Shown here: in pieces, positions 5,401-54,257 of the stretch
Layout of the letters: each line of letters begins with the position of its first letter
Numbering within the stretch: the first letter of the stretch is position 1
IMG/VR virus record: IMGVR_UViG_3300047157_000111
Location: 4,207 to 68,206 of that record
DNA length: 64,000 nt
Direction: 5' to 3' (one strand)
Source of the DNA: a virus
Translations under genes and position numbers: made by a program
The notes under the pieces: model-generated
What the model was told of the DNA's origin: nothing
The model's input: only the letters and a program-made list of their open reading frames with translations
The model's database searches: none

Positions 5401-8400
5401 GATCAGTAAGACAAAAGCTGGTGTTGTTGTTAGTGAAGAGTATAAAAGCTTTCACAGCGAAAACTTTAACGCTATAGTTAAAGCCTTACCTGTATCTGTT
5501 ATAAAAAAGAAATACTTTTCTTTGTTTGAAAAGAAAAACATAGGTAGAGAGAAAACAGCACAAGGAAACGCTATATTTGAAATAAAACCTACATCTAAAG
5601 GTAAGTTTGGAGCATACTTTACTATAGGTGGTTATACTACGCTTCTAGCTAGACAAAAGTCTTTAGCTAACGAGATAAGTGCTGAGCTAATAAAAGATCA
5701 AGCTACTATACTAAAACAAGACATAGACTTTATGAGTGAGCTAGCTGAGGTCGCCGATATGAGTGGAGTACAAGTAACGGAGTTAGTACTGCAAACAGAG
5801 CTAGAATCTTTAGCTAATCAATTTGATAGAAAGAAAACAGAAGCTACTAAGTTTGATAAGATACAGTTTTCTAAAAACTTTAATAACGATCAAGTAAGTG
5901 AGTTAAACAAGAAAAGCAAAAAAATAATAGAACTAAGCAAAGTGTACACCACTGCTTCATCTTTAGCAAATAAGTTGATTAAAGACAAAATAATTGACAA
6001 TAAAGTTTTTACAGTTAAAGAGATAAAAGACTGGAAAAATGAAATACAATCTAGTGTTAACGCTATATTAAGCCCTAAAAACACTTTACAAAGCAATAAG
6101 CTAGGTGAGTATGTAGAGCAAAGGGTTGGGAACAAAAGCGATCTACCTTTAATAAGAATGCTTGATTTAAAGTCTTATGACGTGGTTATTAATGGTGTAA
6201 AAAAGAAATTCTCTAGTTTCGCAGAAGCGTTTAGAGACGCTAAACTTATAGAAAGACAAAGAAAGCTTCATATTGACTACTTTGAATCAAAAATAAAAAC
6301 ATTAGATGATTTAGTCTCGGTTTTAAAATGGTTTCCAGGCCACACAATATCAGCTGGGGCAAGGTATTTCATGAAGTCAAGGAACCAGTCGTTTGCTGGT
6401 ATGAAAGATTTAGTAGCGGAGCTTAATAAAATACTAGAAGTTAAAGGTTGGGAGATAAAAACAAAGCTAACGATAGATGGTAAAACACAGTTAGACAAAG
6501 TAATCAGCACAAAAACTGGAGAGGTTTTAATAGATAACAAAGATACAAAAGTTGGAGATAAGACAATAAAATCTCTTAGGAAACGTTTAACATCGTCATC
6601 TCAAGATACTAAAAAAACTGTTTTACAGTACATAAAAGAGCTTCCTCAAAGAATACAAGATGCAAATGAAGCTTGGAATACTATGATAGATTTTTTAAGT
6701 TTTGTTGACAAAAACGGTGATAACTTAGATTTTGGAATGACTATGATGAGTTTAAAATCTAACATGAGTAGTATGTTGAAAGCTGCTGCTCCTTTAACTT
6801 ATTATTTTGAAGGGTCATATGTTGGTAAGCTAGTGTATGAGCATTTAATACCTACAGAGTACGTAACTCAATCTTTAACTAAGCATTTTAAAATCAAAAA
6901 AATAAATTTAAATTCTTTACAAGATCAATACAAGGTCGCTATAGTTCCTAAAACAATGGACGACAATATAAATGGGTCTGCTAGACAGGAAAATATGCCT
7001 ACTTACTGGCAAATTGGCATGGAAGCTTTATTAAGATATTTTGATGATTTTACTTTTGGTTTTAAAAATATGTATGCTTTAAAAAACCTCCAAACAGGTG
7101 ATGTAGTAGGTAAAAAACATGCTAAAGCTCAATTTTCTAAGACAGATAAAACTAAAGCAGAAAACTTTAATAAGGCTATGATGAACGCTAGAAACCCTAA
7201 CGCGCCTGAAAAAGGTATTAGTGTTTTTGACTTTGATGATACAATAGCTCAATCTAATAGTAAAGTTCTATACGAACTACCAGACGGTAAAAAAGGTAAA
7301 ATAAACGCTACTGAGTTTGCTTTACAATCGGCAGATCTAGAAGCAGCAGGAGCTATATTTGATTTTAGTGAGTTTAGTAAAGTTATAGAAGGTAAAAAAG
7401 GACCTTTGTTTGATTTAGCTGTTAAGCGTCAGGGCAAGTTTACAAGTAAAGATATATTTATACTTACAGCTAGACCTCAAAACGCTGCTTACGCAATACA
7501 TGCTTTTCTAAAAGGTTTAGGTTTAACTATACCTATAAGTAATATAACCGGTTTAGCTGATGGTAAAGCTTCTGCAAAAGCTGATTGGATAATAGGTAAA
7601 GCTGCAGAAGGTTACAATAACTTTTACTTTGCTGACGATGCTTATAAAAATGTTAAAGCTGTTCAAAAGGTTTTAGATATAATAGATGTTAAAAGAGATG
7701 TTCAGTTAGCTAAGATACAATTTAGCAGAAACATGGACGAAGCTTTTAACGATATACTAGAGCAAACTAAGAAGGTTGATTCTAATAAAAGATTTTCTAA
7801 AGCAGCTGCTAAATCCAGAGGTAGAGATATAGGTAAATGGAAATTTTTCTTACCACCTTCCGCTGAAGATTTTGTAGGTTTATTATATAACTTTTTAGGT
7901 AAAGGTAAAGTTGGTGAACAACAAATGGAGTTTTTTAACAAAGCCTTAGTACAACCGTTTGCTAGAGCAATGGATGAGCTTAATAGAGCTAAGCAAGCTA
8001 TAGCTACTGACTTTAGGGCGTTAAAAAAGACTTATCCTGAGGTTAGAAAAATGCTAGCTAAAATAACACCATATAACAACTTTACATATGATACAGCTGT
8101 AAGAGTTTATATATGGAACAAGAAGGGTATTGCGATACCAGGTTTATCTAAAACTGATATAAAAAGACTGACGGATATTGTTGAGAATAATTCTGATTTA
8201 AAAGACTTTGCTGATACTTTAGAAGTTGGGGTTGCTAACAATAATTACCCTAACGCTGGGGACACTTGGCTAGTAGGTAATATTGCTACTGATTTAAAAG
8301 ATATAACAGATAAAATAGGTAGAAAAGAATTTCTACAAGAGTGGAAAGCAAACAAAGATGTTATATTTAGCACGGAAAACTTAAACAAAATAGAGGCTAT

Positions 8401-9814
8401 ATACGGTAGTAATTTCAGGGAAGCACTGGAAGATATGCTGTATAGAATGGAAAATGGTACAAATAGGAGTTTTGGTAGCAACAGATTAGTTAATTCTTTC
8501 TCAAATTGGGTGAATAACTCTGTAGGTGCTATTATGTTTTTCAACATGAGATCTGCAATACTTCAGACTATATCATTTGTTAACTTTGTAAACTGGAGTG
8601 ATAACAATCCTCTAAAGTTTGCTGGAGCAATATTAAACGTTAAGCAATTCTCTAGCGACTTTGTAACTTTGTTTAACTCAGATATGTTAAAGCAGAGGCG
8701 AGCTGGTATAGGTAGAGACGTTAATGAATCTGAAATAGCTGAAGCTATGAGTGGCGCTAGAAATAAACCGAGAGCTATACTTAATTATTTACTTAGAGTA
8801 GGTTTTACACCTACGCAAATAGCAGATAGTTTTGCAATATCAATGGGTGGTGCTGCTTTTTATAGAAACAGAATAAACACATACTTGAAACAAGGTATGA
8901 CAAAAGATCAAGCTTTGGATCAAGCATTTAAAGACTTCCAAGAAACTACTGAAGTTTCACAACAGTCTTCAAGACCTGATATGATTAGTCAACAACAAGC
9001 CGGTCCATTGGGTAGATTAATATTAGCTTTCCAAAATACACCAATGCAGTATACTAGGTTGATGAAAAAAGCTTTTAAAGATCTGATAAACGGTAGAGGT
9101 GATGCTAAAACTAATTTATCTAAAATAGTTTACTACGGTGTTGTTCAAAATATAATATTTGCATCCATGCAATCAGCATTGTTCGCTATGTTATTTGATG
9201 ATGACGACGATGAAGATAAATATAGCAAGAAAAAAGGTAGAATAGCAAACACAATGACAGACTCTATACTTAGAGGTTCTGGATTAGCCGGTGCTGGTAT
9301 ATCTACTATTAAAAATGTTATATTAAAATTCTTAGAACAAGAAGAAAAAGGTTGGAACGCGGATCACGCTTATACTGTTATTGAAGCCGCTAATTTCTCT
9401 CCACCTATTGGTTCTAAACTTAGAAAAATGTATTCAGGTATACAGACTTATAAATTTAATAAAGATGTTATAGCTGATAGAGGTCTTTCTTTGAATAATC
9501 CAGCGTGGCAATCAGCAGGTAACTTTGTATCCGCGGCAACTAACATACCTATGGATAGAGCTGTAAATAAGTATAATAACTTAAGAGGAGCAGCAAATAA
9601 CAACAATGAAGCTTGGCAAAGAATAGCTATGGCTCTAGGTTGGAATTCTTGGGATGTAGACGCTGAAGTAGAGACTGGATATAAAGACTATAAAGCAAAA
9701 CTAAAGAAAACACAAAAAAGAAGAAAAATACTAAACAAAAGAAGAGACAAAGCTAGTAATAGGCAGGAGATTATAAATAAAAGAAGAGAAATATTAAGAA
9801 ACCGAAAAAAATAA
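2462..9814 (+). CDS. giant modular virion/ejection (polyvalent) protein
   Basis: 2450 aa; Gly/Ala hydrophobic helices, zincin HEFLH, sigma-region-2-like segment, YEHLIP, HAD motifs DFDDT...TAR...K...FADD. Confidence 0.7.
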   Translation: MEELELIVQRMIDAGEPEENIKAVIEEYTAGKQTDPVNVEANAGSKENTASNSEDGLSDSPFWNPNEETTVEKPGYFEEKFGVKNGFTNFADDLFRVWEGGAAQGGGVDEAFDLYKLGKDMNQDQLEGLIKSGRRLEEAGQTDEMIYAGQMMEKYKKEGDNGVTAFFKSYFSLDNPTVMAQYMTQSFVGMLASLKDSEEVLGTASAVAGGGAIAGAGVGLVGGPFAPVTSSAGAIAGTIGGFMGGLSGAMETGLTTAQLLQESATDAGLNWSTMSDEARIAYVKKVTNNETMFNDIKSKALARGITIGAIDGITGVVTGGASGAVSKGVAKSTASALTKSATVLTSAATETAGGLASEYFGQKAGGQEFNLEEIMIEGFADKSFTAINTVNALRKGNPKYSINGEKMNGKQFHDALKMMDDEAYITADINVENSPAVESVVNNRKQNINLDQEIDSKVSGVEDRAELIKLEKERLKLSKNKTRTAKQKLANINAKIDEINSKYEGAEVDVTIEDRKKAIAKAIDDKFEASFNKNLEAVKPEAEKRGLDIDVNEDEDTYFQNIADDQGVSLEEAKEKAAGSDGVFLGKGKIFINKVQAKKVGAVSVASHEFLHPVLNALVGDGKQQASFLKQFKSRVSSKNNTWVMNAMKAGGVDPSSYNTEYINYFSDGIQKNKISYDQSLFEKIGESLKRLFVGKGFDNISFDNGRDVYNFLKEYNTSIKSGKVSDVASEAITKAESKKDTKISDVEALDQNGQFSRTEDVQEINDIYNSNESKELAGFEIADKYRGMAESVFNALKEGSNYTQNQKEVFEGKKEDMLAMMLYDKIPSQKEDSKARNVVGLVQDFESKKQKYNNVAAYVNTFFKERSKEVFKYFSKDAVNEGLTKEDGTLKKSVSSKANESSKVDQGKEARKLSSFDKLMKGTESFIDASIKKNIIVKLTKNLKTAAFKGRFTAESITAEIKKLIKQEIEKAVVKRMGKISKTKAGVVVSEEYKSFHSENFNAIVKALPVSVIKKKYFSLFEKKNIGREKTAQGNAIFEIKPTSKGKFGAYFTIGGYTTLLARQKSLANEISAELIKDQATILKQDIDFMSELAEVADMSGVQVTELVLQTELESLANQFDRKKTEATKFDKIQFSKNFNNDQVSELNKKSKKIIELSKVYTTASSLANKLIKDKIIDNKVFTVKEIKDWKNEIQSSVNAILSPKNTLQSNKLGEYVEQRVGNKSDLPLIRMLDLKSYDVVINGVKKKFSSFAEAFRDAKLIERQRKLHIDYFESKIKTLDDLVSVLKWFPGHTISAGARYFMKSRNQSFAGMKDLVAELNKILEVKGWEIKTKLTIDGKTQLDKVISTKTGEVLIDNKDTKVGDKTIKSLRKRLTSSSQDTKKTVLQYIKELPQRIQDANEAWNTMIDFLSFVDKNGDNLDFGMTMMSLKSNMSSMLKAAAPLTYYFEGSYVGKLVYEHLIPTEYVTQSLTKHFKIKKINLNSLQDQYKVAIVPKTMDDNINGSARQENMPTYWQIGMEALLRYFDDFTFGFKNMYALKNLQTGDVVGKKHAKAQFSKTDKTKAENFNKAMMNARNPNAPEKGISVFDFDDTIAQSNSKVLYELPDGKKGKINATEFALQSADLEAAGAIFDFSEFSKVIEGKKGPLFDLAVKRQGKFTSKDIFILTARPQNAAYAIHAFLKGLGLTIPISNITGLADGKASAKADWIIGKAAEGYNNFYFADDAYKNVKAVQKVLDIIDVKRDVQLAKIQFSRNMDEAFNDILEQTKKVDSNKRFSKAAAKSRGRDIGKWKFFLPPSAEDFVGLLYNFLGKGKVGEQQMEFFNKALVQPFARAMDELNRAKQAIATDFRALKKTYPEVRKMLAKITPYNNFTYDTAVRVYIWNKKGIAIPGLSKTDIKRLTDIVENNSDLKDFADTLEVGVANNNYPNAGDTWLVGNIATDLKDITDKIGRKEFLQEWKANKDVIFSTENLNKIEAIYGSNFREALEDMLYRMENGTNRSFGSNRLVNSFSNWVNNSVGAIMFFNMRSAILQTISFVNFVNWSDNNPLKFAGAILNVKQFSSDFVTLFNSDMLKQRRAGIGRDVNESEIAEAMSGARNKPRAILNYLLRVGFTPTQIADSFAISMGGAAFYRNRINTYLKQGMTKDQALDQAFKDFQETTEVSQQSSRPDMISQQQAGPLGRLILAFQNTPMQYTRLMKKAFKDLINGRGDAKTNLSKIVYYGVVQNIIFASMQSALFAMLFDDDDDEDKYSKKKGRIANTMTDSILRGSGLAGAGISTIKNVILKFLEQEEKGWNADHAYTVIEAANFSPPIGSKLRKMYSGIQTYKFNKDVIADRGLSLNNPAWQSAGNFVSAATNIPMDRAVNKYNNLRGAANNNNEAWQRIAMALGWNSWDVDAEVETGYKDYKAKLKKTQKRRKILNKRRDKASNRQEIINKRREILRNRKK

Positions 9815-10447: not shown

Positions 10448-11059
10448 ATGGAAAAGTGCTATACACGCGATCAAATAAAGAAAGCTGTTTTAAACCTAGG
10501 TTACAAATGGTTTGAATCAGGAGAATACAATGTTAATATTGTTGGTGTAAGAAACTCAAGTACTGGCGTTGATGTAACTAACAAGTTTGACGACTGTATA
10601 ACAGTCTCTTACAAAATAGGTGACGAATGGCAATTCCATTGTTATAAGTGTACTACAGATCCAGGTACTCACTGGGTAGAAAATATAATGAAAAAAGAAG
10701 GTGTTGCTGTTTTAAAACCTGGTCAATATAGAAGCTCTCACAAACTTAGATTACATCTTGGTAAATACTTAGCTTTAGGACAGCAAAATCCCGTAACTGT
10801 TTACAGAGATAACAACAGAGACGATAAATACGATTTAGACGAAGATAACACTCAAACAGGTTTGTTTGGTATCAATATACATAGAGCAACAGGTAGATCA
10901 GGCAAAACATCTTCAAGAATAGATAAATGGTCTGCTGGCTGCCAAGTAATAGCTAGCAACGACGATTGGCATGAGTTTTTAGACATATGCCAAGTGGCTA
11001 GAGAAAAGTGGAGTAACAACTTTACTTATACATTAATAAATTCAAAAGATATAGCATGA
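10448..11059 (+). CDS. endolysin candidate, L,D-transpeptidase (YkuD)-like
   Basis: GINIHRA...WSAGCQV matches the His...S-x-G-C catalytic motif of YkuD-type enzymes. Confidence 0.65.
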   Translation: MEKCYTRDQIKKAVLNLGYKWFESGEYNVNIVGVRNSSTGVDVTNKFDDCITVSYKIGDEWQFHCYKCTTDPGTHWVENIMKKEGVAVLKPGQYRSSHKLRLHLGKYLALGQQNPVTVYRDNNRDDKYDLDEDNTQTGLFGINIHRATGRSGKTSSRIDKWSAGCQVIASNDDWHEFLDICQVAREKWSNNFTYTLINSKDIA

Positions 11060-11598: not shown

Positions 11599-13317
11599 TT
11601 AGCCATCACAAGCTAAACAATCTTCGTTCATTGCTTGTTGAGCTATATCTCCACGTAAGACAGATTCTGTCCTAGTATAATACAAGGTTTTAACACCTTT
11701 TTTCCAAGCCTCATAATGAACTTTGTTTATCCACTTTGGTGTAGCAACACTAGGAAAAGCTAAGTTTAAACTAACAGACTGATCTACGTATTGCTGTCTC
11801 AGTCCAGCCTGATTAACTAGTTCTAGTTGATTAATCTCCTTAAAAGTTTTAAATACCTCCTTTGCGGGTGTTTCGTGCGCCATAACAACATCATCAAGCT
11901 CAGCAATATTTTGCACGCTACCACCATCAGCCAAGATCTTGTCCCATGTCTCATGATTATTTATTTTAAGTTTTCTTAATAACTTAGTTAACGTAGGGTT
12001 TTTTCTTATAAAAGTACCCTTAGCTGTTTGCTCTGTAAAAACATTAGCAGCCCAAGGTTCTATTCCGGGCGAAACATTTCCGCTAAGCTTACTATTAGAA
12101 ACAGTGGGAGCAACAGCCCTAAGGTGAGTGTTACGCATACCAGTGCCAGAACACCACAGAGGCTCACCATAAGTTTCAGCAAGGGCCATACTAGCTCTTT
12201 CACTTTCAATTTTAATTTGACTAAAGATTTTTCTAGTTTCAAACTGCGCGAGTAAGCCTTCGAAACTAATTCCTTTTTCTTGTAAGTAAGTGTGCCATCC
12301 CAATACGCCAAGACCGAGAGCCCTGCCTTTAGTAGCAGATCTAACCGCGTTTTCAAAGCCACGAAGGCCTTTTGCTCTTTGAATAAACTCTTCCATGACC
12401 CCGTCAAGGAACCATATACTATCGTAAATAAGGTTCGTACCTTTCCATTCTTCATATTTTGCTAAATTTAATGATGATAAACAACAGACAAAGCTGTGAT
12501 TCTCATCGGTGTGTAATGTGATCTCAGAACATATGTTCGTCATATGTACTTTGAGACCGTTGTCTTTGTATGCTGCTGGGTTATTTTTGTTTGTATTTCC
12601 CTTAAATAAAATATAAGGTTCTCCAGTTGCTTTACGCTTTTGTAATAATTTTGACCATTTTCTTCTAGCCTCTTTATCTCCTGATTCAACTCTTCGCATG
12701 AACTTGTCGCCGACCACAGCGCACTGGTGTAGGTTGAGGGATTGACGATTAACGTCTCCTTTAGGTTCTCTAATTTCGATCCAGTCTTCGAAATCGGCAT
12801 GCTCAATATTGATGTTAACTGAAGCAGCTCCTCTTCGGACAGATCCTTGATTAGTGGCGAGTATTGTTGAATCGTAAATCTTACAAAACGGCACAACTCC
12901 ATCAGATGTTCCATTTCCTGTTATTTTAGCGCCAGCGGGTCTTATTTGATTTATACCGATACCAACTCCACCGCCGTGCTTAGCGAGTAGCATCATCTCT
13001 AAGTTTTTACTTCCTATATCCTGTATACTATCAGCCACATCAATACCGAAGCAGCTAATAGGCAAGCCGCGATCAGTACCTGTATTAGATAGTACTGGGC
13101 TAGCGAGACATAGCCAACCATTCCAAATGTACTCGAAGAAAGTTTCTGCCATTTCTGGTTTATATAATCTACGAGCAACTGTTTTAGCGACTCTTTGGTA
13201 TGCCTCTCGAGGTGTTTCTCCGTGATATAAATATCCCCCGGATATAGTCTTCTTGTACACGTCGTTATTACCCCACGTAGGGTAATCTTCTCCTTTGATC
13301 CAGTTTTCATTCCACAT
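11599..13317 (-). CDS. nrdA: class I ribonucleotide reductase alpha subunit (no ATP cone)
   Basis: PISCF, GGGVG, TNICSEI, APT, KTLYY and C-terminal CLAC. Confidence 0.95.
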   Translation of the reverse strand: MWNENWIKGEDYPTWGNNDVYKKTISGGYLYHGETPREAYQRVAKTVARRLYKPEMAETFFEYIWNGWLCLASPVLSNTGTDRGLPISCFGIDVADSIQDIGSKNLEMMLLAKHGGGVGIGINQIRPAGAKITGNGTSDGVVPFCKIYDSTILATNQGSVRRGAASVNINIEHADFEDWIEIREPKGDVNRQSLNLHQCAVVGDKFMRRVESGDKEARRKWSKLLQKRKATGEPYILFKGNTNKNNPAAYKDNGLKVHMTNICSEITLHTDENHSFVCCLSSLNLAKYEEWKGTNLIYDSIWFLDGVMEEFIQRAKGLRGFENAVRSATKGRALGLGVLGWHTYLQEKGISFEGLLAQFETRKIFSQIKIESERASMALAETYGEPLWCSGTGMRNTHLRAVAPTVSNSKLSGNVSPGIEPWAANVFTEQTAKGTFIRKNPTLTKLLRKLKINNHETWDKILADGGSVQNIAELDDVVMAHETPAKEVFKTFKEINQLELVNQAGLRQQYVDQSVSLNLAFPSVATPKWINKVHYEAWKKGVKTLYYTRTESVLRGDIAQQAMNEDCLACDG

Positions 13318-13585: not shown

Positions 13586-14553
13586 TACCATATATCTTCA
13601 AAATCTTCTCCTTCATTCGCTTTACTATAGTCAGTCGGCCTAATAGCGAAAAAATCAGTATGAGTGACGCCCCCGGTAAGATGATAGAACCAATCAAGAT
13701 TGCTCGCCGCTTTGGTGTCATACGCAAAATACGATCCCAAGTCAACATAACCGAGCTCCACAAGTTTTTCATTTGCTCTCTTTTTTATGAATTGTTTCAA
13801 GTCTATAGCTTTTATACCCTCGATGTCACCCATTTCAAACATTTTATCAATATAGCTTTCTTCAAGCTTAACCATTGTTTCAGCAGCTTTAACTACATCT
13901 TCTCTACATTCAGCTAAAAGATTTTCATCTTCCTGACACATATGTCTAAACAATTGGCAACCCATTTTACTGTGCAATGACTCATCTCTCACAGACCATT
14001 TCATTTGCTGGCCAATTCCTTTGAGTAAATTACGTAGTTGAAAACTATATAACACAGCGAAAGCGCTATATAGGCTAACACCCTCTGCGAAAGCGGAAAA
14101 TATAGCCAAGCTTGTACCGATGCCAGCACTGCTAGTACCGTCATAAGCAACCAAGTTGTCAAAACGTCTAGCTGTTGCAGGTTCGTGTAAAAATGCTTCA
14201 TAGTCTTCTAGTTTTAATGTTTCATTTAAATAGCTGTATGCTACAGCGTGTACTGTTTCCTGTGAGCCAAACATCATGGCCATTTGTCTTATTTCGTGTT
14301 TAGGAAACCACGATACGACCTTCTGGGTCCAATAGTCTGAAACAGCGCATTCGGTTTGCGCGAATCCAAGAAGTATGTTCCCAACAAGGTTTTTTTCTTT
14401 TTCGTTAAGTCTTTCATTCCAATCTTTTATATCGCTCTGCATTGAGATCTCAGTGTGTAACCAAAATGCTTGAGCTTGTTTTAACCACCCTTCAGTATAA
14501 TACTCAGGGTAGTCAAAAGGTTTGTACGCTATGCGCTCATCAAATAATCCCAT
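13585..14553 (-). CDS. nrdB: class I ribonucleotide reductase beta subunit
   Basis: ETVHAVAY, EGVSLYSAF, RDESLH, TDFF di-metal motifs. Confidence 0.95.
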   Translation of the reverse strand: MGLFDERIAYKPFDYPEYYTEGWLKQAQAFWLHTEISMQSDIKDWNERLNEKEKNLVGNILLGFAQTECAVSDYWTQKVVSWFPKHEIRQMAMMFGSQETVHAVAYSYLNETLKLEDYEAFLHEPATARRFDNLVAYDGTSSAGIGTSLAIFSAFAEGVSLYSAFAVLYSFQLRNLLKGIGQQMKWSVRDESLHSKMGCQLFRHMCQEDENLLAECREDVVKAAETMVKLEESYIDKMFEMGDIEGIKAIDLKQFIKKRANEKLVELGYVDLGSYFAYDTKAASNLDWFYHLTGGVTHTDFFAIRPTDYSKANEGEDFEDIW

Positions 14554-14699
14554 TACTTTTTAAATATTTCTAAAGCAATGTCTACAAAAGGCATGTATAG
14601 CACATGAGTAGTCTGTGTTGGTTCATCGTAGGTTCTACATCCTACTAAAACACCTGGATAAAAGCCAAATGACAAACTCCAGTTTTTTGTTTCTTTCAT
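14553..14699 (-). CDS. hypothetical protein (48 aa)
   Basis: MKETKNWSLSFGFYPGVLVG...EIFKK; stop overlaps the nrdB start. Confidence 0.55.
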   Translation of the reverse strand: MKETKNWSLSFGFYPGVLVGCRTYDEPTQTTHVLYMPFVDIALEIFKK

Positions 14700-20826: not shown

Positions 20827-21585
20827 CTACAGGTAATCAAGCACTTGCGAGTGGTCTACAGACTCTATTAATTTCTCAACAGCTTGCTTTTTTAACTGCG
20901 AAACTCTTACGTAAGAGCTACTACCTTTTATGTTTAACATAGAGGCTATATCTTTTGCGGCGTGTTTTTCACAGTCTAAACCGTAGCTCAGTCTTAGTAT
21001 ATTATATTCCAAATCGTTTAAATGTTTCTTTAATAAACCAGTTAGGTATATGTTTAATATCTGCTGGTTGTATGGTTCTGACTTGTCAGGAATATCATAT
21101 ACTGAGTTATCATCATTGTTAGGCTTCTCATCTATACTTAAAAATATAGAATTAAAAAACATAGCAACCATTTTTTCATCTTTACCGAAGTTCTTACGCA
21201 TCTCGTTAAGCTTGTGCTCTGGTATACGTATATCACCTCTGTTTATATCTATAGATCTTCTTATTGCTCCTTTAATTCTTTTACTAAAAAATGATTTCAA
21301 TGTCTTCTCGTAGTCTTCAGATTTTTCTAGTGTTGGCCAATCTAATCTATCAACAGCTTTAGTTAGTCCTGCTGCTCCTGATTGTATTAAATCCATAATA
21401 CTCTGTACACCTGAAGCTTGTTGACTGGTTGAAAACTTTCTAGCTAGACTTTCTACTAAAGGCATAAACTTAGTTATAAGCTCTTCTCTAGTACAGTCTG
21501 CCCAGTCTTTATTCTCTAGTCTTATCAAAGCTTGCTTAAGATCTTCTTTGTATCTTATATAGTTCTGTATGTTATACTTTTTCAT
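20827..21585 (-). CDS. sigma-70-family RNA polymerase sigma factor
   Basis: Region 2 (LVESLARKF...DLIQSG..GLTKAVD...IKGAIRR, IRIPEH) and region 4 HTH (ILRLSYGL...RVSQLKKQA). Confidence 0.85.
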   Translation of the reverse strand: MKKYNIQNYIRYKEDLKQALIRLENKDWADCTREELITKFMPLVESLARKFSTSQQASGVQSIMDLIQSGAAGLTKAVDRLDWPTLEKSEDYEKTLKSFFSKRIKGAIRRSIDINRGDIRIPEHKLNEMRKNFGKDEKMVAMFFNSIFLSIDEKPNNDDNSVYDIPDKSEPYNQQILNIYLTGLLKKHLNDLEYNILRLSYGLDCEKHAAKDIASMLNIKGSSSYVRVSQLKKQAVEKLIESVDHSQVLDYL

Positions 21586-30087: not shown

Positions 30088-31653
30088 ATGGAATTTAATA
30101 ACCCTAGCGAGCTTGTCAAGGATTTATCCTTCGGTGAGGAAGCTAAAAGTAAAGTAATTAATGGTGTAGATAAACTAGCTAAAGCAGTAAAGTCTACATT
30201 AGGAGCTTCAGGTAAGTGTGTCATTTATGAAGATGCTCGTGGAAGACCGGTGATAACAAAAGACGGTGTAACCGTTGCGGAAAGCGTAGTCTTAATGGAT
30301 CCGGTCGAAAACATAGGAGCAACACTTATCAAAGAAGCTGCTAAAAACACAGTGAAAGAAGCAGGTGACGGTACTACAACAGCTACCGTCCTTGCTGAAT
30401 CACTACTAAAAGAAGCATCGTCAGCAGAAGGCTCAGTAAGAGACATAAAGCTAGGCATTGCATCTTGTGCTAAAAAAGTAAACAAGTACTTAGACGATAT
30501 AACTATAGAGGTCAAAGGCGAAATGCTAAGAGACGTTGCAGCTATATCATGTAACAACGATAACGAACTAGGTGCCATCATATCTGATGCTTATGAAAAA
30601 GTAGGTAAATCAGGTGTGGTTTTGATGGAAGAGTCAGAAACAGAACAAACGTACGTTGAGATCGTAGATGGAGTACAGTTGGAATCTGGCTTAAAATCGC
30701 CACACCTTATTACAGATAGAGATAAACAACGTACAGTTCTTGAAAAACCGCTAGTATTAATAGTTGCATCGACAATACCTAACATACGTAAGATACAACC
30801 AATACTAGAACATGTTATAAAGACTAAGAGATCGTTACTTATAGTAGCTGAAGTTGAGACTCAAGTGTCATCTACGCTACTAATGAACAAAGTTAAGGGT
30901 AATATAAAGGTAAATTATATAGATCCACCAGGATTTGGTCCTACAAAGCAAAGTACGCTTGAAGATTTAGCATTTTTAACAGGTGCTACTATAATGGATG
31001 AGAATCTAGGTGATGATTTAGACCTTATAAAGCCTGATTGCTTAGGTGAAGTACAAAAAGCGGTCACAGATGATAAAACTACAGTGCTAACCACTATGGA
31101 TTTAGGCTTAGATTTAGAAGAAAGGATCAAAGATGTGCAAAAAAGCATAAAAAAAGAAAAAAACCAGTACATAAAACGAAGACTAGAGCAAAGATTAGCC
31201 ATGTTAAGTGGTTCAGTTGGCTTAGTGAGAGTTGGTGCTGACTCAAAGGTTGAGTTGAAAGAGAAAAAAGACAGAATAGAAGATGCTATTTACGCCGTTA
31301 AGGCCGCCTTGAAAGAAGGAATAGTCCCGGGTGGTGGTGTAGCGTTGTTTGATGCGGCAAAATTTGTTGAACCTAGCGGTTTAGGAGAAGAAATACTTCT
31401 AAAATCCATAGTTTCACCGTTTAACACGATATTAGACAATGCAGGCATCATAAATTCTGTTAAAAAAGACGAAGTATACGGTTATGGTATAGATGTAACC
31501 ACTGGTGAGTATATCAATATGATAGAAAAAGGTATAATTGATCCAGTTTTAGTTACTAAGTCAGCTCTTAAAAATGCAATATCAGTAGTTTCTACTATAA
31601 TATCTGCAGATTGTGTAATCTCTAATGTAAGAATAGAAAATGCAAGCAGTTAA
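30088..31653 (+). CDS. groEL: phage chaperonin GroEL
   Basis: [28 protein letters not shown]; no GGM tail. Confidence 0.95.
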
Positions 31654-31897
31654 TTATTATATAGTAGTAGAAAACATAAAAGTCGAGCAAAAAAAAGTAG
31701 CTGGACTTATATTGACAGATAAAACAGATACAGACAATAGATATTTAAAGGCTAGGATAATTTCTACTGGTAACTTGGTTAAAGGTGTGCAGGAAGGAGA
31801 TATAGTCTACTATGATAGACACGCTGGACACAGTATACAAGTAAAAGAAGGTTTATATAAAGTCATACAAGTAGGTGACGTTGTTTTAGTTGAATGA
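31640..31897 (+). CDS. groES: co-chaperonin GroES
   Basis: AGLIL mobile loop, ISTG, VQEGDIV; follows groEL. Confidence 0.85.
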   Translation: MQAVNYYIVVENIKVEQKKVAGLILTDKTDTDNRYLKARIISTGNLVKGVQEGDIVYYDRHAGHSIQVKEGLYKVIQVGDVVLVE

Positions 31898-34217: not shown

Positions 34218-35162
34218 ATGGCATTTAAACTAAAGAAAACATCAGACAACTTGTTCCACAAAGTATCTGAATCAAAACTAGACGGTGGAAAAGTAACACA
34301 ACAACCACAAGTTAACATGGAAGCACCGTCTTCAGTTGCTAAACTAACAGGTCCTGTAGGAACTGGTATTTTAGGAGCTGCAGCTGGTTATCTTGCTAAA
34401 AAAGTATTTGGTGGTAGTAAAAAGCCAATGGGTGAAAATGGTCCAGCTAAACCACCTCAGAAAAAAGATCTATCCATGACACCTTATTCTTCAAAAGACG
34501 GTAAAGGTACTATTCATGGTCCTAAAGTTAGTTATGATATGGCTTACAATAAAGCTAAAAAAACTAAGCAATATGCTAATATGTCTAAAGACGAGTATAT
34601 TACTGAAGCTAAAAGACAAACAGCTAATTTTAAGAAAACAGGTAAATGGGACGCAGGTGGAGCATCTAAGCCTAGAAAAAAAGTAGAAGCTGTTTCTGCT
34701 ATTAAACCAGCAAGTATACAAGCTAATACTGCTAAACCTACAGCTACTATAGAAATTAAAAAGCCAACTGTTGAAAAGAAAGAGACATCAAAAAAAGCTA
34801 GTAAATTAAGAGAAAAAGGAAACAAAGTATTATCAGACAATAGTCTTTCAACTGAAGAAAAGCAAAGAAAAGCTTTAAGTATAAGAAAAAAGTATGATAA
34901 ACAAAACTCTAAGGTTGAAAAGAAAGCTAAAGTTAAAACTGCTAAGGTTGGAAAAATAGAGGCTAGAGCTAATGTTGCAGAAGCTAAAGGTAATAATAAA
35001 AGAGCAGAAAGACTTAGAGCAAAAGCTGAAAGAAAAGAAACTGGAGTGTCTAGAAAAGATCAAGGACGAAACATTTTTGGTGGAAAAACTAGAAAGCAAA
35101 AGAAGAAAGAGGCTCAAGCCAAAAAAGCTGGTTCCGCTCCAGATTTTAGCGGAATGTCATAA
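34218..35162 (+). CDS. Lys-rich basic protein (internal DNA-binding candidate)
   Basis: MAFKLKK start; very basic, histone-H1-like composition. Confidence 0.6.
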   Translation: MAFKLKKTSDNLFHKVSESKLDGGKVTQQPQVNMEAPSSVAKLTGPVGTGILGAAAGYLAKKVFGGSKKPMGENGPAKPPQKKDLSMTPYSSKDGKGTIHGPKVSYDMAYNKAKKTKQYANMSKDEYITEAKRQTANFKKTGKWDAGGASKPRKKVEAVSAIKPASIQANTAKPTATIEIKKPTVEKKETSKKASKLREKGNKVLSDNSLSTEEKQRKALSIRKKYDKQNSKVEKKAKVKTAKVGKIEARANVAEAKGNNKRAERLRAKAERKETGVSRKDQGRNIFGGKTRKQKKKEAQAKKAGSAPDFSGMS

Positions 35163-35623
35163 TGAGTAAGCCTAAAAAAAAGTTTTCGGAAAGTACTGTA
35201 GGTAAGCTTTTATTTGGTGCTGCGTCTATGATAAACCCCACCCTTGGTAATTTACTAAAGGGTGTAACATCACCTGCTGAAGCTATTGCTGAAATAGGTA
35301 AGTCAGATGTTAGTAACGAAGATAAAATAAAACTACAACAATTAATTTACGATCAACAGAATAAAGAGATAGAGTCTATAACGTCAAGATGGCAAGCGGA
35401 CTCTATTTCAGATTCTTGGTTGTCTAAAAACGTACGCCCGCTAGTGTTAGTGTGGTGTATTGTTATATTCTCTCTAGCAGGTATATTAGACAGCGTTGAT
35501 TCAATACCTTTTAACATTGGTAGCACTTGGAACGATACTTTTGAAAAAGTAATGATGGCAGTTGTCCTAGCTTACTTTGGTGGTCGTACGACTGAGAAAG
35601 CTGCGAATATATTTAAAAAATAA
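35162..35623 (+). CDS. holin (GTA 3TM-holin-like)
   Basis: RWQAD...SWLSKNVRP + two TMs + AYFGGRT.EK. Confidence 0.75.
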   Translation: MSKPKKKFSESTVGKLLFGAASMINPTLGNLLKGVTSPAEAIAEIGKSDVSNEDKIKLQQLIYDQQNKEIESITSRWQADSISDSWLSKNVRPLVLVWCIVIFSLAGILDSVDSIPFNIGSTWNDTFEKVMMAVVLAYFGGRTTEKAANIFKK

Positions 35624-51017: not shown

Positions 51018-51213
51018 TATCGGTAAAGATTATAAAAATGAAGCTATGCATTATGCCGTGGGCCAAGAGGTCTACGGCGGGCATACTATTTGTCATATAA
51101 CAGAAGAAGATGACAAGTTTAGTATATTTATTAAAAAAGCTGACGAGGTTTTACCTTGGAAAGACTTTAATAAAAATATGGCTGTAGCTATAGAGTATAA
51201 TCTAGAGTATTAA
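50995..51213 (+). CDS. conserved hypothetical protein
   Basis: MKLIRKISIGKDYKNEAMHYAVGQ...; likely start is the ATG at 50995. Confidence 0.6.
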   Translation: MKLIRKISIGKDYKNEAMHYAVGQEVYGGHTICHITEEDDKFSIFIKKADEVLPWKDFNKNMAVAIEYNLEY

Positions 51214-51806
51214 TGAAGAGCATATTTGATTTTGTTGTTGAGCCAGTAGGCGACAGATACAACAACACTAAAAATATAGATGGCGTTGATTTAATACTAA
51301 ACACGCAAATATTCACACATCAAAACGTAAATAGGCTAGCAATAGTTAAAAGCTTACCTATAACAGGTGACACTAATATTAGAATAGGTGATCAAGTCAT
51401 TGTTCATCACAATGTTTTTAGAAGGTATCATGACGTTAGAGGAGTGGAAAAGAATGGCAAGAGTTATATAGATGATGATAATTATCTATGTTCTTTTGAC
51501 CAGATATTTTTATATAAAAACAAAAACGAGTGGAAAGCACCTAAGGGTTATTCATTTGTTAAACCTATTGAATCTAATAATATTTTTAATCTAAACAAAG
51601 AATTGCCTAGTATAGGTGTTGTAAAGTATCTCGATGAAGACTTTGATTCACAAATACAACAAGGTGATTTAGTTGGTTTTACTCCTGGTAGTGAATACGA
51701 GTTTATAGTAGATGACGAAAGATTATATAGAGTTAGATCTCAGTCATTAACTATTAGATATGAATATCAAGGAGACGAAAAAGAATATAATCCAAGCTGG
51801 GCATAA
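51213..51806 (+). CDS. tandem double GroES-like co-chaperonin
   Basis: Two units: FVVEP...IRIGDQVIVH and FVKP...GVVKY...GDLVGF...EFIVDDERLYRV. Confidence 0.55.
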   Translation: MKSIFDFVVEPVGDRYNNTKNIDGVDLILNTQIFTHQNVNRLAIVKSLPITGDTNIRIGDQVIVHHNVFRRYHDVRGVEKNGKSYIDDDNYLCSFDQIFLYKNKNEWKAPKGYSFVKPIESNNIFNLNKELPSIGVVKYLDEDFDSQIQQGDLVGFTPGSEYEFIVDDERLYRVRSQSLTIRYEYQGDEKEYNPSWA

Positions 51807-52035
51807 AGCAGTTGAAGAGTTAATAAAGGTTGCTAAAGAAGCTATAGTTGATTCAGATGATGACATATCAGCTGACAGGTTAAAGAATGCTGCTGCAACA
51901 AAAAAGCTAGCTATATTCGATGCTTTTGAAATACTAAATAGAATACAAGAAGAAGAGGATATGTTAAACAATAAACCTAAGGAAGAGACTAAAGAATCTT
52001 CATTTGGTGGTTTTGCAGAAAGAAGATCTAAGTAA
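51760..52035 (+). CDS. putative terminase small subunit
   Basis: Small helical protein whose stop overlaps the terL start. Confidence 0.45.
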   Translation: MNIKETKKNIIQAGHKAVEELIKVAKEAIVDSDDDISADRLKNAAATKKLAIFDAFEILNRIQEEEDMLNNKPKEETKESSFGGFAERRSK

Positions 52036-54257
52036 TGTATCAGCAACAGTTATTCAAGGTTATAGAACCTATAAAAATAAATACCATTAAGAGACTTAAT
52101 AAGTCTAAAAAATGGAAGTATGGTTACAGCAAAGAACATGATGTTGTTGTCATAAGTAAGACTGGGCAAATAGGTGAAGTATATGAAATACAGAATTTAA
52201 AAATAGCTTTACCTAAGATTATAAACCCAGTAAAATTCAGTAAAGATAGATGGGAGGTTACTGAATATCCAAAAGAACTTAAAAGAATTAAGACTGTATT
52301 TGATTGGAGAGATTACCCTGATGAATTTAAAGATAAATGGTATGAGTATATTGACACAGAGTTTAAGTATCGTGAAGAAGGTTTCAGCTTTATTAACAAA
52401 GGTGAGCCTACTTATATTACTGGTACTCATTACATGTACTTGCAGTGGTCCAAGATTGATGTTGGGCAGCCAGACTTTCGAGAAGCAAATAGATTATTCT
52501 ATATATTCTGGGAAGCTTGTAAAGCTGATGCCAGGTCGTATGGAATGTGCTATCTCAAGAATCGACGCTCAGGTTTTTCATTCATGGCGTCCGGGGAGTG
52601 CGTTAACATGGCGACAATATCAACCGACTCACGGTTTGGGATACTGTCCAAATCTGGCCCCGATGCTAAAAAGATGTTCACAGATAAGGTGGTACCCATT
52701 TCTGTTAACTACCCATTTTTCTTTTCCCCAATCCAAGACGGTATGGACAGGCCCAAGACGGAACTTGCCTATCGTGTACCCGCCTCCAAGCTTACCAGAA
52801 GATCCATCGTTAGAACAACCAAGCAGACCGAAACCGAGACGCTATCAGGGCTCGATACGACGATCGACTGGAAGAACACCGGTGACAACTCCTACGATGG
52901 GGAGAAACTCAAACTCCTCGTCCACGACGAATCAGGTAAATGGGAGAGGCCGAACAACATCCTCAACAACTGGCGTGTTACGAAAACCACCCTTAGATTA
53001 GGTAGTAGAGTAATAGGTAAGTGTATGATGGGATCAACATCAAACGCTTTAGACAAAGGAGGGGATAATTTTAAGAAACTATATAAAGCTTCAGATGTTA
53101 CAAAACGAAACCGCAATGGACAGACAAGCTCGGGACTATATTCTCTATTCATACCTATGGAATGGAACTACGAGGGTTTCATTGATTCTAATGGAATACC
53201 TGTATTCGACACACCTGAAACAGAAAAGGTTGGACCTTTTGGCGAGACTATAGATATAGGTATACTAGAACATTGGCAGAATGAAGTTGATGGCTTAAAA
53301 GATGATGGTGATGCTTTAAATGAATTTTATAGACAGTTCCCACGTACAGAAGAGCATGCTTTCAGAGATGAAACAAAAAACAGTATATTTAATTTAGCTA
53401 AAATATACGAGCAAATAGATTACAACGAGGAAACAAACTACATAAACACTATAACTACTGGTAACTTTCAATGGGCTAACGGTGTTAAAGATAGCAAAGT
53501 TATATTTTACCCTGATAAAAACGGTAGATTTAAATTAAGCTGGACACCACCATCCCACTTACAGAATAACGTTATATTGAAAAACGGTTATAAGAAACCA
53601 GGTAACGAACACATAGGCGTTTTTGGTTGTGATAGTTACGATATATCTGGTACAGTTGACGGTAAAGGTTCTAAAGGAGCTTTACATGGGTTAACTAAGT
53701 TTAGTATGGAAGATGCACCAGTAAACCATTTTTTCTGTGAATACATAGCTAGACCACAAACCGCTGAGATATTCTTTGAAGATGTACTTATGGCTTTGGT
53801 TTTTTATGGAATGCCTATACTAGCAGAGAATAACAAACCACGTTTATTGTACTATTTAAGAAGAAGAGGATACAGAGGCTTCTCAATGAACAGACCTGAT
53901 AAAGTATGGAACAAACTATCTGTTGCTGAAAAAGAAGTAGGTGGAATACCTAACTCTAGTGAGGATATAAAACAATCACATGCAGCTGCAATAGAAATGT
54001 ACATACAGGATCACGTTGGTATAAAGCCAGACGGGTCACACGGAACAGTTTATTTCAATGACCTTCTCAACGATTGGTCTAAGTTTGATATAAACAATAG
54101 AGGTAAATTTGATGCATCTATAAGTTCTGGTTTAGCTATAATGGGTTGTAATAGACATTTATATGCTCCAAACGCTAAAGTAGAAAAACAAAAACTAAAT
54201 ATAAGTTTCGCAAGGTATAAACAAGGTGGAACACATTCAAAATTAATAGAAAATTAA
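52035..54257 (+). CDS. terL: terminase large subunit
   Basis: KNRRSGFS Walker A, LLVHDESGK Walker B, GSTSN, nuclease acidic residues (GCDSYD, ENN, FDA). Confidence 0.9.
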   Translation: MYQQQLFKVIEPIKINTIKRLNKSKKWKYGYSKEHDVVVISKTGQIGEVYEIQNLKIALPKIINPVKFSKDRWEVTEYPKELKRIKTVFDWRDYPDEFKDKWYEYIDTEFKYREEGFSFINKGEPTYITGTHYMYLQWSKIDVGQPDFREANRLFYIFWEACKADARSYGMCYLKNRRSGFSFMASGECVNMATISTDSRFGILSKSGPDAKKMFTDKVVPISVNYPFFFSPIQDGMDRPKTELAYRVPASKLTRRSIVRTTKQTETETLSGLDTTIDWKNTGDNSYDGEKLKLLVHDESGKWERPNNILNNWRVTKTTLRLGSRVIGKCMMGSTSNALDKGGDNFKKLYKASDVTKRNRNGQTSSGLYSLFIPMEWNYEGFIDSNGIPVFDTPETEKVGPFGETIDIGILEHWQNEVDGLKDDGDALNEFYRQFPRTEEHAFRDETKNSIFNLAKIYEQIDYNEETNYINTITTGNFQWANGVKDSKVIFYPDKNGRFKLSWTPPSHLQNNVILKNGYKKPGNEHIGVFGCDSYDISGTVDGKGSKGALHGLTKFSMEDAPVNHFFCEYIARPQTAEIFFEDVLMALVFYGMPILAENNKPRLLYYLRRRGYRGFSMNRPDKVWNKLSVAEKEVGGIPNSSEDIKQSHAAAIEMYIQDHVGIKPDGSHGTVYFNDLLNDWSKFDINNRGKFDASISSGLAIMGCNRHLYAPNAKVEKQKLNISFARYKQGGTHSKLIEN
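52342..53001 (+). CDS. candidate overprinted lipoprotein gene in the +1 frame of terL
   Basis: 219 codons from ATG 52342; KK + hydrophobic stretch + LITC lipobox; Pro/Ser/Thr/Arg-rich tail; terL codons switch to C/G-ending forms here. Confidence 0.45.
   Translation: MSILTQSLSIVKKVSALLTKVSLLILLVLITCTCSGPRLMLGSQTFEKQIDYSIYSGKLVKLMPGRMECAISRIDAQVFHSWRPGSALTWRQYQPTHGLGYCPNLAPMLKRCSQIRWYPFLLTTHFSFPQSKTVWTGPRRNLPIVYPPPSLPEDPSLEQPSRPKPRRYQGSIRRSTGRTPVTTPTMGRNSNSSSTTNQVNGRGRTTSSTTGVLRKPPLD

Follow-up and report, generated by a model that had tools for sequence, protein, structure and literature searches.

A probable gene overprinted in the +1 frame of the phage terminase gene terL, with a predicted envelope-directed product and a codon-usage footprint

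The stretch of DNA analysed here, hereafter the window, comprises 64,000 nucleotides (positions 4,207 to 68,206) of the IMG/VR virus record IMGVR_UViG_3300047157_000111, a record of 68.2 kb, and has a G+C content (GC) of 35%. Its gene for the terminase large subunit, terL, carries in its +1 frame a long open reading frame (ORF) that we consider to be a probable gene in its own right (Table 1). The original prediction, made from the letters alone, had reported this frame as open for 233 codons and had read its product as a lipoprotein nested in the terminase ATPase domain. The ORF was recovered with that extent, and the frame extends over 255 open codons between the stops that bound it. The segment of TerL that the ORF covers includes what we take to be the Walker A (YLKNRRSGFS) and Walker B (LLVHDE) motifs of the enzyme; TerL itself has no Pfam match and no sequence relative in the PDB. 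Three starts are available to the overprinted gene: the TTG at 52300 chosen in the original prediction, an ATG at 52321, and the ATG at 52342, which is the most probable. The last lies 22 codons ahead of the hydrophobic core of the predicted leader, where the commonest spacings in relatives are 17, 18 or 22, and it coincides with the consensus start of 77 aligned proteins (that of the window and 76 called proteins). All 27 open sequences of the set selected by TerL, and 71 of 74 further ones, have an ATG that follows the upstream stop and precedes the hydrophobic core; the three relatives that lack one (L094, L134 and L136) were matched only from query residue 17, 4 and 10.

Table 1. Features of the terL locus and of the lysis-related genes of the window
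Feature	Position in window	Strand	Basis or remark
terL, terminase large subunit, 740 aa, host gene	52035..54257	+	phrog_6681, E 4e-165, residues 26-738
Stop-free +1 frame of terL, 255 codons plus TAG at 52999-53001	52234..53001	+	upstream in-frame stop 52231-52233
ORF of 233 codons from TTG, nested in the +1 frame of terL	52300..53001	+	ORF listing
Overprinted gene, likeliest coding sequence (219 aa, ATG start at 52342)	52342..53001	+	start spacing, consensus start
Predicted export leader: KK, hydrophobic helix, ITCTC (Cys32, Cys34 of the 219-aa product), then SG	52375..52443	+	translation
Island of high third-position GC (GC3) in terL, encoding the Pro/Ser/Thr/Arg/Gly-rich tail	52515..52994	+	GC3 0.50-0.77
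C-terminal motif GRGRTTSSTTG of the overprinted protein	52942..52974	+	conserved in alignment
Holin-like gene	35162-35620		17 kb from overprinted ORF
Endolysin-like gene	10448-11056		41 kb from overprinted ORF

Among the 48 genes (17,550 codons) of the window, these 255 codons form the longest open stretch in a same-strand alternative frame, the next being 133 and 81 codons long. The open frame was compared with a permutation null in which synonymous codons were shuffled within the region, so that both the amino acids of TerL and the region's own codon pool were kept. Over terL codons 66–320, where 5.98 stops are expected in the +1 frame, only 1 of 20,000 permutations had none; for the GC3-rich core alone the count was 110 of 20,000. 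The null was roughly calibrated: among 221 segments of 120 codons, 17 reached P ≤ 0.05 and six P ≤ 0.01, and these six lie in nrdA (three), terL (two) and a tail-fibre gene (one). Stops in the +1 frame arise only from NTA or NTG codons that precede A or G, hereafter risk contexts. Within codons 66–320 of the window's terL, A-ending codons for Leu, Ile and Val were used at 0 of 23 positions before A or G and at 8 of 15 positions before C or T (Fisher P 1.3e-4), while in the remainder of terL they occupy 32 of 46 risk and 23 of 28 non-risk contexts. Stops in the +2 frame are still frequent across codons 66–129, the AT-rich part of the region. Since the avoidance of stops is specific to context and +2 stops are frequent, the open frame is not a mere by-product of GC-rich codons.

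The same frame was then followed in related phages. IMG/VR was scanned with TerL, which gave at least 599 matching stretches, and the best 80 loci were kept (73–84% identity). The fixed core used for comparison was terL codons 128–250; 78 sequences, including the window, were testable, two loci being incomplete. The core is free of +1 stops in 27 of the 78 (the window and 26 loci, i.e., 26 of 77 relatives), where permutation expects 1.6–4.2, while in two control regions of the same terL genes the observed stop counts are close to those expected. Nine sequences carry a long form that runs to codon 309 of the window or beyond (all except L072 reach 319 or 321), 18 carry a medium form ending at codons 252–294, and 51 are closed. 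Many of the closed sequences carry too few stops (1–3 versus 3.4–6.1 expected), which looks like recent decay of ORFs. As synonymous sites are near saturation between most pairs of these sequences, they can be taken as largely independent samples of codon choice.

The product predicted from the ATG at 52342 begins with the leader KKVSALLTKVSLLILLVLITCTC, in which a basic n-region (K12, K13) is followed by the hydrophobic segment VSALLTKVSLLILLVLI. AlphaFold2, given the 77-row alignment, modelled a helix over residues 2–34, with block values of the predicted local distance difference test (pLDDT) of 63–85 over residues 1–30. The hydrophobic core, LLILLVLI, requires T-ending terL codons at Pro124, Thr125, Ile127, Thr128 and Thr130. 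T-ending codons were found at these positions in 9 of 9 long-form, 13–17 of 18 medium-form and 5–22 of 51 closed relatives, which mostly have A; these counts are not phylogenetically independent, one clade dominating the closed set, and only codon 127 is tied to the definition of open and closed. The mean Kyte-Doolittle hydropathy of the leader segment follows the same order, at 2.26 in long, 2.06 in medium and 0.19 in closed sequences. The CTCSG that ends the leader requires TAC, TTG and CAG in terL, all present in 9 of 9 long-form sequences, and third-position identity of terL over codons 120–149 is 0.72–0.76 among long-form sequences versus 0.55–0.57 among closed ones.

Two called proteins of the same family (P0105 and P0109) led to a divergent terL clade, hereafter clade 2, whose TerL is 66–67% identical to that of the window. 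There the +1 ORF is open for 205–241 codons in 28 of 28 distinct full-length sequences, although 5.0–7.4 stops are expected by permutation, and the probability of finding none is ≤0.002 for each sequence. Inside the ORF, A-ending codons for Leu, Ile and Val occur in 0 of 560 risk contexts and 247 of 420 non-risk contexts; outside it they occur in 1030 of 1723 and 649 of 881, respectively. GC3 is 0.48 within the ORF versus 0.18 outside, and the island sets in about 15 codons past the start of the ORF and ends at its stop. The clade-2 product, for example MILNNIKKILKKNTINILIPSLIIVMMVIGSC-AT, has a basic n-region, a hydrophobic h-region and then (V/A)-I-G-S-C, with the Cys at position 32. Under a lipobox rule after PROSITE, 28 of 28 clade-2 ORFs pass (VIGSC or AIGSC). 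At positions −1, +2 and +3, the residues Ser, Ala and Thr require TTC, TGC and AAC in terL, three consecutive codons of two-fold families; these are used in 28, 28 and 27 of the 28 sequences, whereas in the rest of those genes the corresponding amino acids use them at 15%, 10% and 24%. From its predicted sequence, the clade-2 product is probably a lipoprotein, with a leader ending in a near-canonical lipobox. Where the window has its hydrophobic core, clade 2 has a hydrophilic stretch, its leader being encoded just upstream instead. Because the leaders are built from different segments of terL, an export leader is retained in each clade in its own way. A lipobox pattern search of the rest of the window gave five weak matches, four in nested or antisense frames and one in a short ORF, none of them convincing. 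The short ORF (14553–14699, minus strand, 48 codons) lies beside the gene for the ribonucleotide reductase small subunit (13588–14553) and has VLVGC after a weakly hydrophobic start, the only near-canonical lipobox of the window outside nested or antisense frames.

The distribution of open and closed frames was placed on a FastTree phylogeny of 165 rows, built from the TerL part that follows the ORF and with the Flavobacterium elemo phage as root; supports in this tree are local and many forks are weak. The outgroups, the elemo phage and MW202828, have +1 stops throughout, their longest open stretches being 54 and 46 codons. Clade 2 is wholly open. In clade 1, the basal branches are open, one derived clade of 40 rows is closed, and further closed rows are scattered (e.g., L001, L007, L036, L047/L057, L058 and L060/L080). 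The history of the two states requires at least 10 changes, nine of them among TerL-selected rows. The simplest reading of these sequences would be one origin, followed by repeated loss or by replacement through recombination. The original prediction had named +1 stops in close homologues as the observation that would point to a recombined GC-rich patch. Some close homologues do have them (L001, L007 and L036), but on the tree they appear as scattered losses beside the one derived closed clade, a pattern that is not the sign of a recombined foreign patch. In closed relatives, a lipoprotein gene that might make up for the absence of the ORF was sought up to 1.5 kb from terL, with only spurious matches inside terL as the outcome.

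The ORF coincides with a change in the composition of terL. GC, in segments of 200 nt, climbs from 0.30–0.36 to 0.44–0.51 over 52400–52999. GC3 of terL, in segments of 30 codons, is 0.17–0.33 before codon 100 and 0.43–0.47 at 52365–52514; after the island (Table 1) it is 0.23 from 52995, right after the alternative stop, and 0.07–0.40 beyond codon 321. A switch to GC-rich codons had been described for about 52420–52995: the switch and its reversion at the alternative stop are real, but the strong part starts nearer 52515. Position 3 of a terL codon is position 2 of an overprinted codon. The terL codons ending in A or T, which are usual in this phage, give Ile, Leu, Phe, Tyr, Asn, Lys and stops in the +1 frame; those ending in C or G give Thr, Ser, Pro, Ala, Arg and Gly. 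Residues I/L/F/V/M/W/Y make up 0.22–0.38 of the +1 frame in open relatives versus 0.42–0.48 in the virtual translation of closed ones, and P/S/T/G/A make up 0.30–0.44 versus 0.14–0.18. As stop avoidance needs changes at Leu, Ile and Val codons only, the wider shift (AAC, ACC, GAC, etc.) suggests selection for a polar, non-aggregating tail.

Could the island instead be a non-coding GC-rich patch, left by recombination, biased gene conversion or mutation bias, with the ORF and the composition of its protein as mechanical by-products? GC3-rich DNA does lower the density of +1 stops and yields Ser, Pro, Thr, Arg and Gly automatically, but permutations that preserve composition seldom reach zero stops, and the avoidance of stops depends on context rather than on composition. 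The patch is polymorphic among the TerL-selected loci (GC3 at least 0.45 in 10 of 80 and at most 0.31 in 59 of 80), and open and closed states are interleaved on the tree of the TerL C-terminal part, as recombination could give; no GC-rich donor lineage was seen among these loci, however, the top GC3 outside the patch being 0.42, and the borders of the island match those of the ORF in two diverged clades. Openness and the patch also come apart, since L003 (GC3 0.22, 215 open codons) and L053 (0.31, 207 open codons) are open without a marked island. The poor conservation of the tail sequence would suit a by-product, whereas the conserved clade-2 lipobox codons and a leader preserved by T-ending rather than GC-ending codons would not. 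We consider the GC-rich patch an improbable explanation. Still less probable is a DNA or RNA element in terL, such as a packaging site or a structured RNA, that demands GC-rich sequence. The island is sharply bounded, and in some phages pac sites lie within terminase genes (those for the small subunit). Nevertheless, the predicted RNA fold of 52480–53000 is ordinary (z-score −0.41; 27 shuffled sequences in 100 do equally well), Rfam gave no match at E ≤ 1 across 51800–53400, and such an element explains neither the frame-specific avoidance of stops nor the conservation of leader and lipobox codons.

The overprinted protein was also used to look for relatives. Its 219-aa sequence matched 217 stretches of IMG/VR, of which 80 were kept; these include near-identical copies (96–99%) and copies at 89% and about 80%. 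A word-indexed protein search gave 135 called proteins, mostly of 200–220 aa and 39–64% identical, which have no Pfam domain and are named 'hypothetical protein' where they are named at all. In an exhaustive profile search of 1.84 billion representatives, the 153 matches at E ≤ 0.001 are the same family, its fragments, or chimeras of terL and the alternative frame (four inspected); no free-standing or bacterial homologue appeared in this search, which gives no genomic context. None of the deposited phage records (INPHARED) carries the ORF, and the only match of the protein among 50,697 phage records by tblastn, weak and partial, is to MW202828, whose +1 frame is full of stops. The called proteins P0001, P0117, P0134, P0150, P0178 and P0185 are chimeric and switch between the terL and +1 frames at differing points; the chimeras are probably artefacts of frameshift-tolerant gene callers or of assembly indels, and they show the hidden ORF confusing automatic annotation.

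The occurrence of such chimeras in public protein sets is what might be expected if the frame were open because ribosomes cross it, either in a programmed TerL frameshift isoform or in a regulatory ORF that tunes terL expression. A middle and tail that evolve fast and have no predicted fold, as if only openness counted, would agree with this. However, the chimeras switch frame at differing places and look like artefacts, and in most of the clade-2 sequences shown the ATG follows a stop by three codons, which excludes fusion from upstream. Moreover, rare synonymous codons that mere openness would not require maintain the C-terminal motif, the lipobox and the hydrophobic character of the leader, and the polar recoding of codons that could not form stops (AAC, ACC and GAC) is likewise superfluous for it. 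A frame kept open for passing ribosomes is therefore unlikely in our view, if marginally less so than the GC-rich patch.

Beyond the leader, the Pro/Arg/Ser/Thr-rich tail of the original prediction was borne out by composition: Pro, Ser, Thr, Gly and Ala account for 0.42 of residues (terL codons 140–320), and the tail is basic, with 26 R+K versus 8 D+E and a pI of 10.9. Near its end, the motif GRGRTTSSTTG needs six C-ending codons (Asn, Ile and Leu) in the terL segment encoding ...RPNNILNNW.... It is kept in 7–8 of the 9 long forms selected by TerL, while closed relatives read ..IIY*ITG.. there. In the 77 aligned proteins, G201 and G211 are invariant and T206–T210 are at least 90% conserved.

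Against a genuine gene with an exported lipoprotein product stands, first, the window's own lipobox. PMC6139136 gives the lipobox consensus as [LVI][ASTVI][GAS]C; the window's box, L-I-T-C, with Thr at −1 ahead of Cys32, does not conform to it, and 0 of 82 group-1 ORFs pass the PROSITE rule that all clade-2 ORFs pass. The claim of a basic-hydrophobic signal with a lipobox Cys thus holds for the leader and the Cys but not for a canonical box, conservation of the lipobox across terL homologues holds in clade 2 but not in group 1, and for the window's product a lipoprotein is only one possibility among several. The 51 of 78 TerL-selected sequences with +1 stops in the core mean that the gene is dispensable, and only that set is unbiased, as loci L082–L213 were fetched using the overprinted protein and open forms are over-represented among them. 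The protein belongs to no Pfam, PHROGs, NCBIfam or PADLOC family, its best score in an ESM Atlas structure look-up was 0.75, with low recognition, and residues 47–214 have pLDDT below 50 in the AlphaFold2 model based on the 77 aligned sequences. Cys69 and Cys112 are invariant in the same alignment, but most of the conserved residues, including these two and Cys32, are forced by Met-Tyr, Met-Cys and Met-Phe pairs of TerL, and the forced residues also appear in the virtual translation of closed relatives; as the cysteines are dictated by terL dipeptides, their conservation alone is uninformative.

A further set of points of the same kind concerns synonymous variation, which the original prediction had expected to be reduced. 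It is reduced in the codons of the leader, CTCSG, lipobox and C-terminal motif, but the middle and tail show no excess constraint. Over terL codons 180–270, third-position identity is 0.41–0.48 among long-form sequences versus 0.51–0.72 among closed ones. The closest relatives have 2–9 differences within the ORF, all silent in terL, and these alter the overprinted protein in all but one case (L087). The synonymous rate inside versus outside the ORF is 0.11 versus 0.20 per codon for L088–L090 and 0.19–0.21 versus 0.20–0.21 for L091–L093; it is approximately halved for L083–L085 and L088–L090 but not for L086, L087 and L091–L093, and is thus inconsistent. The stretch of low synonymous change runs to about codon 375, beyond the end of the ORF, and the synonymous rate varies strongly along terL.

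Two observations on terL variation stand beside these. Between the window and L091–L093, terL codons 150–250 (52485–52785) show 10–18 synonymous differences per 50 codons, against mostly 7–13 elsewhere, and over the whole ORF 46 of the 48 terL-synonymous differences of L091 change the overprinted protein; either a tract of recombination or selection for diversity in the hidden protein could underlie this excess. A short way downstream of the ORF, at terL codons 345–389 (53070–53204), pairwise third-position identity is unusually high among the nine long-form sequences, at 0.80–0.85, versus 0.49–0.55 among medium-form and 0.65–0.72 among closed sequences.

Weighing these points, we assign a probability of about 0.82 to the reading that 52342–53001, possibly from 52300, is a genuine gene overprinted on the ATPase region of terL, with a predicted envelope-directed product, a GC3 footprint and a history of repeated loss. 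That a real gene with an exported product lies here, as first proposed, is well supported by the comparative evidence, all of it drawn from sequences. The product, of about 219 aa, would most likely be translated by internal initiation on late terL mRNA. Its basic and hydrophobic N-terminal leader would direct it through Sec into the cell envelope, and the product of the window may be signal-anchored, a substrate of signal peptidase I, or a poorly processed lipoprotein. The remaining residues, some 185, would be basic and rich in Pro, Ser, Thr, Arg and Gly, with no predicted fold, and GRGRTTSSTTG may be an interaction site. The GC3 island of terL would be the footprint of the overprinted gene: C or G at the second positions of its codons replaces Ile, Leu, Phe, Tyr and stops, so that the tail stays open and polar, while T-ending codons in the leader would supply Leu. 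Its origin may postdate the divergence from MW202828 and from the lineage of the Flavobacterium elemo phages, and predate that of the two terL clades.

As to function, repeated loss argues for an accessory one. Should the overprinted gene be genuine, action at the envelope, for instance in superinfection exclusion or in masking of the receptor, is a tentative proposal that falls somewhat short of even odds, and a spanin-like role in lysis, the other possibility raised in the original prediction, is unlikely. We favour an accessory envelope factor over a core lysis protein because the gene is dispensable and patchy and its body evolves fast. PMC6139136 describes embedded, overlapped and separated architectures of spanin genes. 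Lambda Rz1 in Rz and T7 18.7 in 18.5 are likewise same-strand +1 genes wholly within another phage gene. Their products, like the one predicted here, start with a Cys-bearing export signal and continue into a periplasmic part that is rich in Pro, mostly unstructured and furnished with cysteines. In those cases, however, the surrounding gene encodes the partner inner-membrane spanin (i-spanin), while here it is terL, which encodes an essential cytoplasmic ATPase; the mature part here is about 185 aa and strongly basic, compared with 40 aa for Rz1; the window's LITC is non-consensus; and repeated loss argues against a core lysis role. Neither an i-spanin gene nor a lysis cassette contains or adjoins the overprinted gene, and none of the window's genes was identified as an i-spanin. 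Of the features of an outer-membrane spanin, the lipoprotein signal is found in clade 2 only, and the Pro-rich unstructured part with cysteines is present in the window but is weak evidence, as the cysteines are forced by Met codons of terL.

Other systems resemble the overprinted gene in part. Gene E of phiX174 is a +1-frame gene in the essential morphogenesis gene D; the E protein, a 91-aa single-gene lysis protein of a tiny single-stranded DNA phage, has a membrane helix at its N terminus and a basic C-terminal part under little constraint. As in E, the leader is the best-conserved part of the overprinted protein, but the window comes from a double-stranded DNA phage of about 68 kb, in which separate holin-like and endolysin-like genes are present, and no sequence similarity to E was found. 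Llp of T5 and Cor of phi80 and HK022 are small, dispensable envelope proteins of patchy distribution that act as superinfection-exclusion lipoproteins. The repeated losses and fast-evolving middle of the overprinted gene would fit such a class, although Llp and Cor come from free-standing genes and have canonical lipoboxes, and searches of PHROGs, Pfam, NCBIfam and PADLOC showed no similarity to their families. Viral genes that arose de novo by overprinting (Rancurel et al. 2009, cited in PMC6139136) likewise have products rich in disorder-promoting residues and are narrow in taxonomic range and accessory, and like them the present gene has no homologues outside the overlap (153 profile matches). 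It differs from typical overprinted genes in that its unusually long overlap of some 220 codons covers the catalytic core of a conserved enzyme of double-stranded DNA phages and forms a visible compositional island. A full-text literature search, judged by titles and abstracts, found no description of a gene nested in terL.

The original prediction had further proposed that overprinting of conserved enzyme genes is systematic in this phage, with nrdA as the second case. The nrdA gene (phrog_84, 11602–13317, minus strand) has in its +1 frame two open stretches of 126 and 133 codons, with 24 stops over its 573 codons. In the 133-codon stretch (12063–12461), 3.69 stops are expected and none was reached in 6 of 5000 permutations; A-ending codons for Leu, Ile and Val occur there in 0 of 15 risk and 4 of 11 non-risk contexts. 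The window and 80 relatives (81–95% identical) were compared, and the stretch is free of stops in 65 of the 81; the virtual +1 product ends in a hydrophobic segment. The proposal has some statistical backing in these permutation and stop-free counts, with the nrdA frame as a candidate gene. The second-longest GC-rich stretch of the window (2976–3575, 600 nt, GC 0.46) lies in an ORF of 2450 aa (2462–9814), whose +2 frame is open for 67 codons at codons 196–264, within that stretch.

Besides terL, the window contains genes for ribonucleotide reductase, primase/helicase, GroEL/GroES and the portal protein, as well as holin-like, endolysin-like and tail-fibre genes. GroEL (phrog_5725) lies with GroES at 30088–31894, a second GroES-like gene (51213–51806) lies directly upstream of the terL region, and a gene resembling RNA polymerase sigma factors is found at 20830–21585. 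The isolate phages closest by DNA similarity are Flavobacterium and Maribacter phages, all distant. The phage is common in seawater, with 0.83–0.97 of sampled words recovered in 13 DNA runs from eight studies, one run possibly being the source sample. Contigs from four RNA-library runs span the ORF; these indicate presence only, as they carry neither strand, start nor frame, and were not counted as expression given possible DNA carry-over, while parts left uncovered carry no meaning.

Nested genes of double-stranded DNA phages are usually thought of as short lysis genes within their partner; here, an accessory gene of about 220 codons would lie on the most conserved phage enzyme. In its fullest form, our reading is of a de novo gene in the ATPase core of terL, older than the split between clades of 66% TerL identity, which forced lasting GC3 recoding, acquired two kinds of leader (a true lipobox or a Cys-rich signal anchor), and serves as a fast-evolving, dispensable factor for superinfection exclusion or receptor masking; taken whole, this is a doubtful proposition, though a possible one. 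An overprinted gene of this kind is invisible to standard annotation. It would explain the codon-usage island of terL and matters for terL phylogeny, for host prediction from codon usage and for recombination scans. GC3 islands in AT-rich phage genes may reveal further overprinted genes, with nrdA in this window as a candidate. Intact, decaying and lost copies, together with two solutions for an export signal, form a comparative series for the birth of genes by overprinting. If the reading is true, this natural series would show how one set of codons can serve both a young gene and an essential enzyme, and it would point to an envelope-directed function in phages of marine Flavobacteriia.

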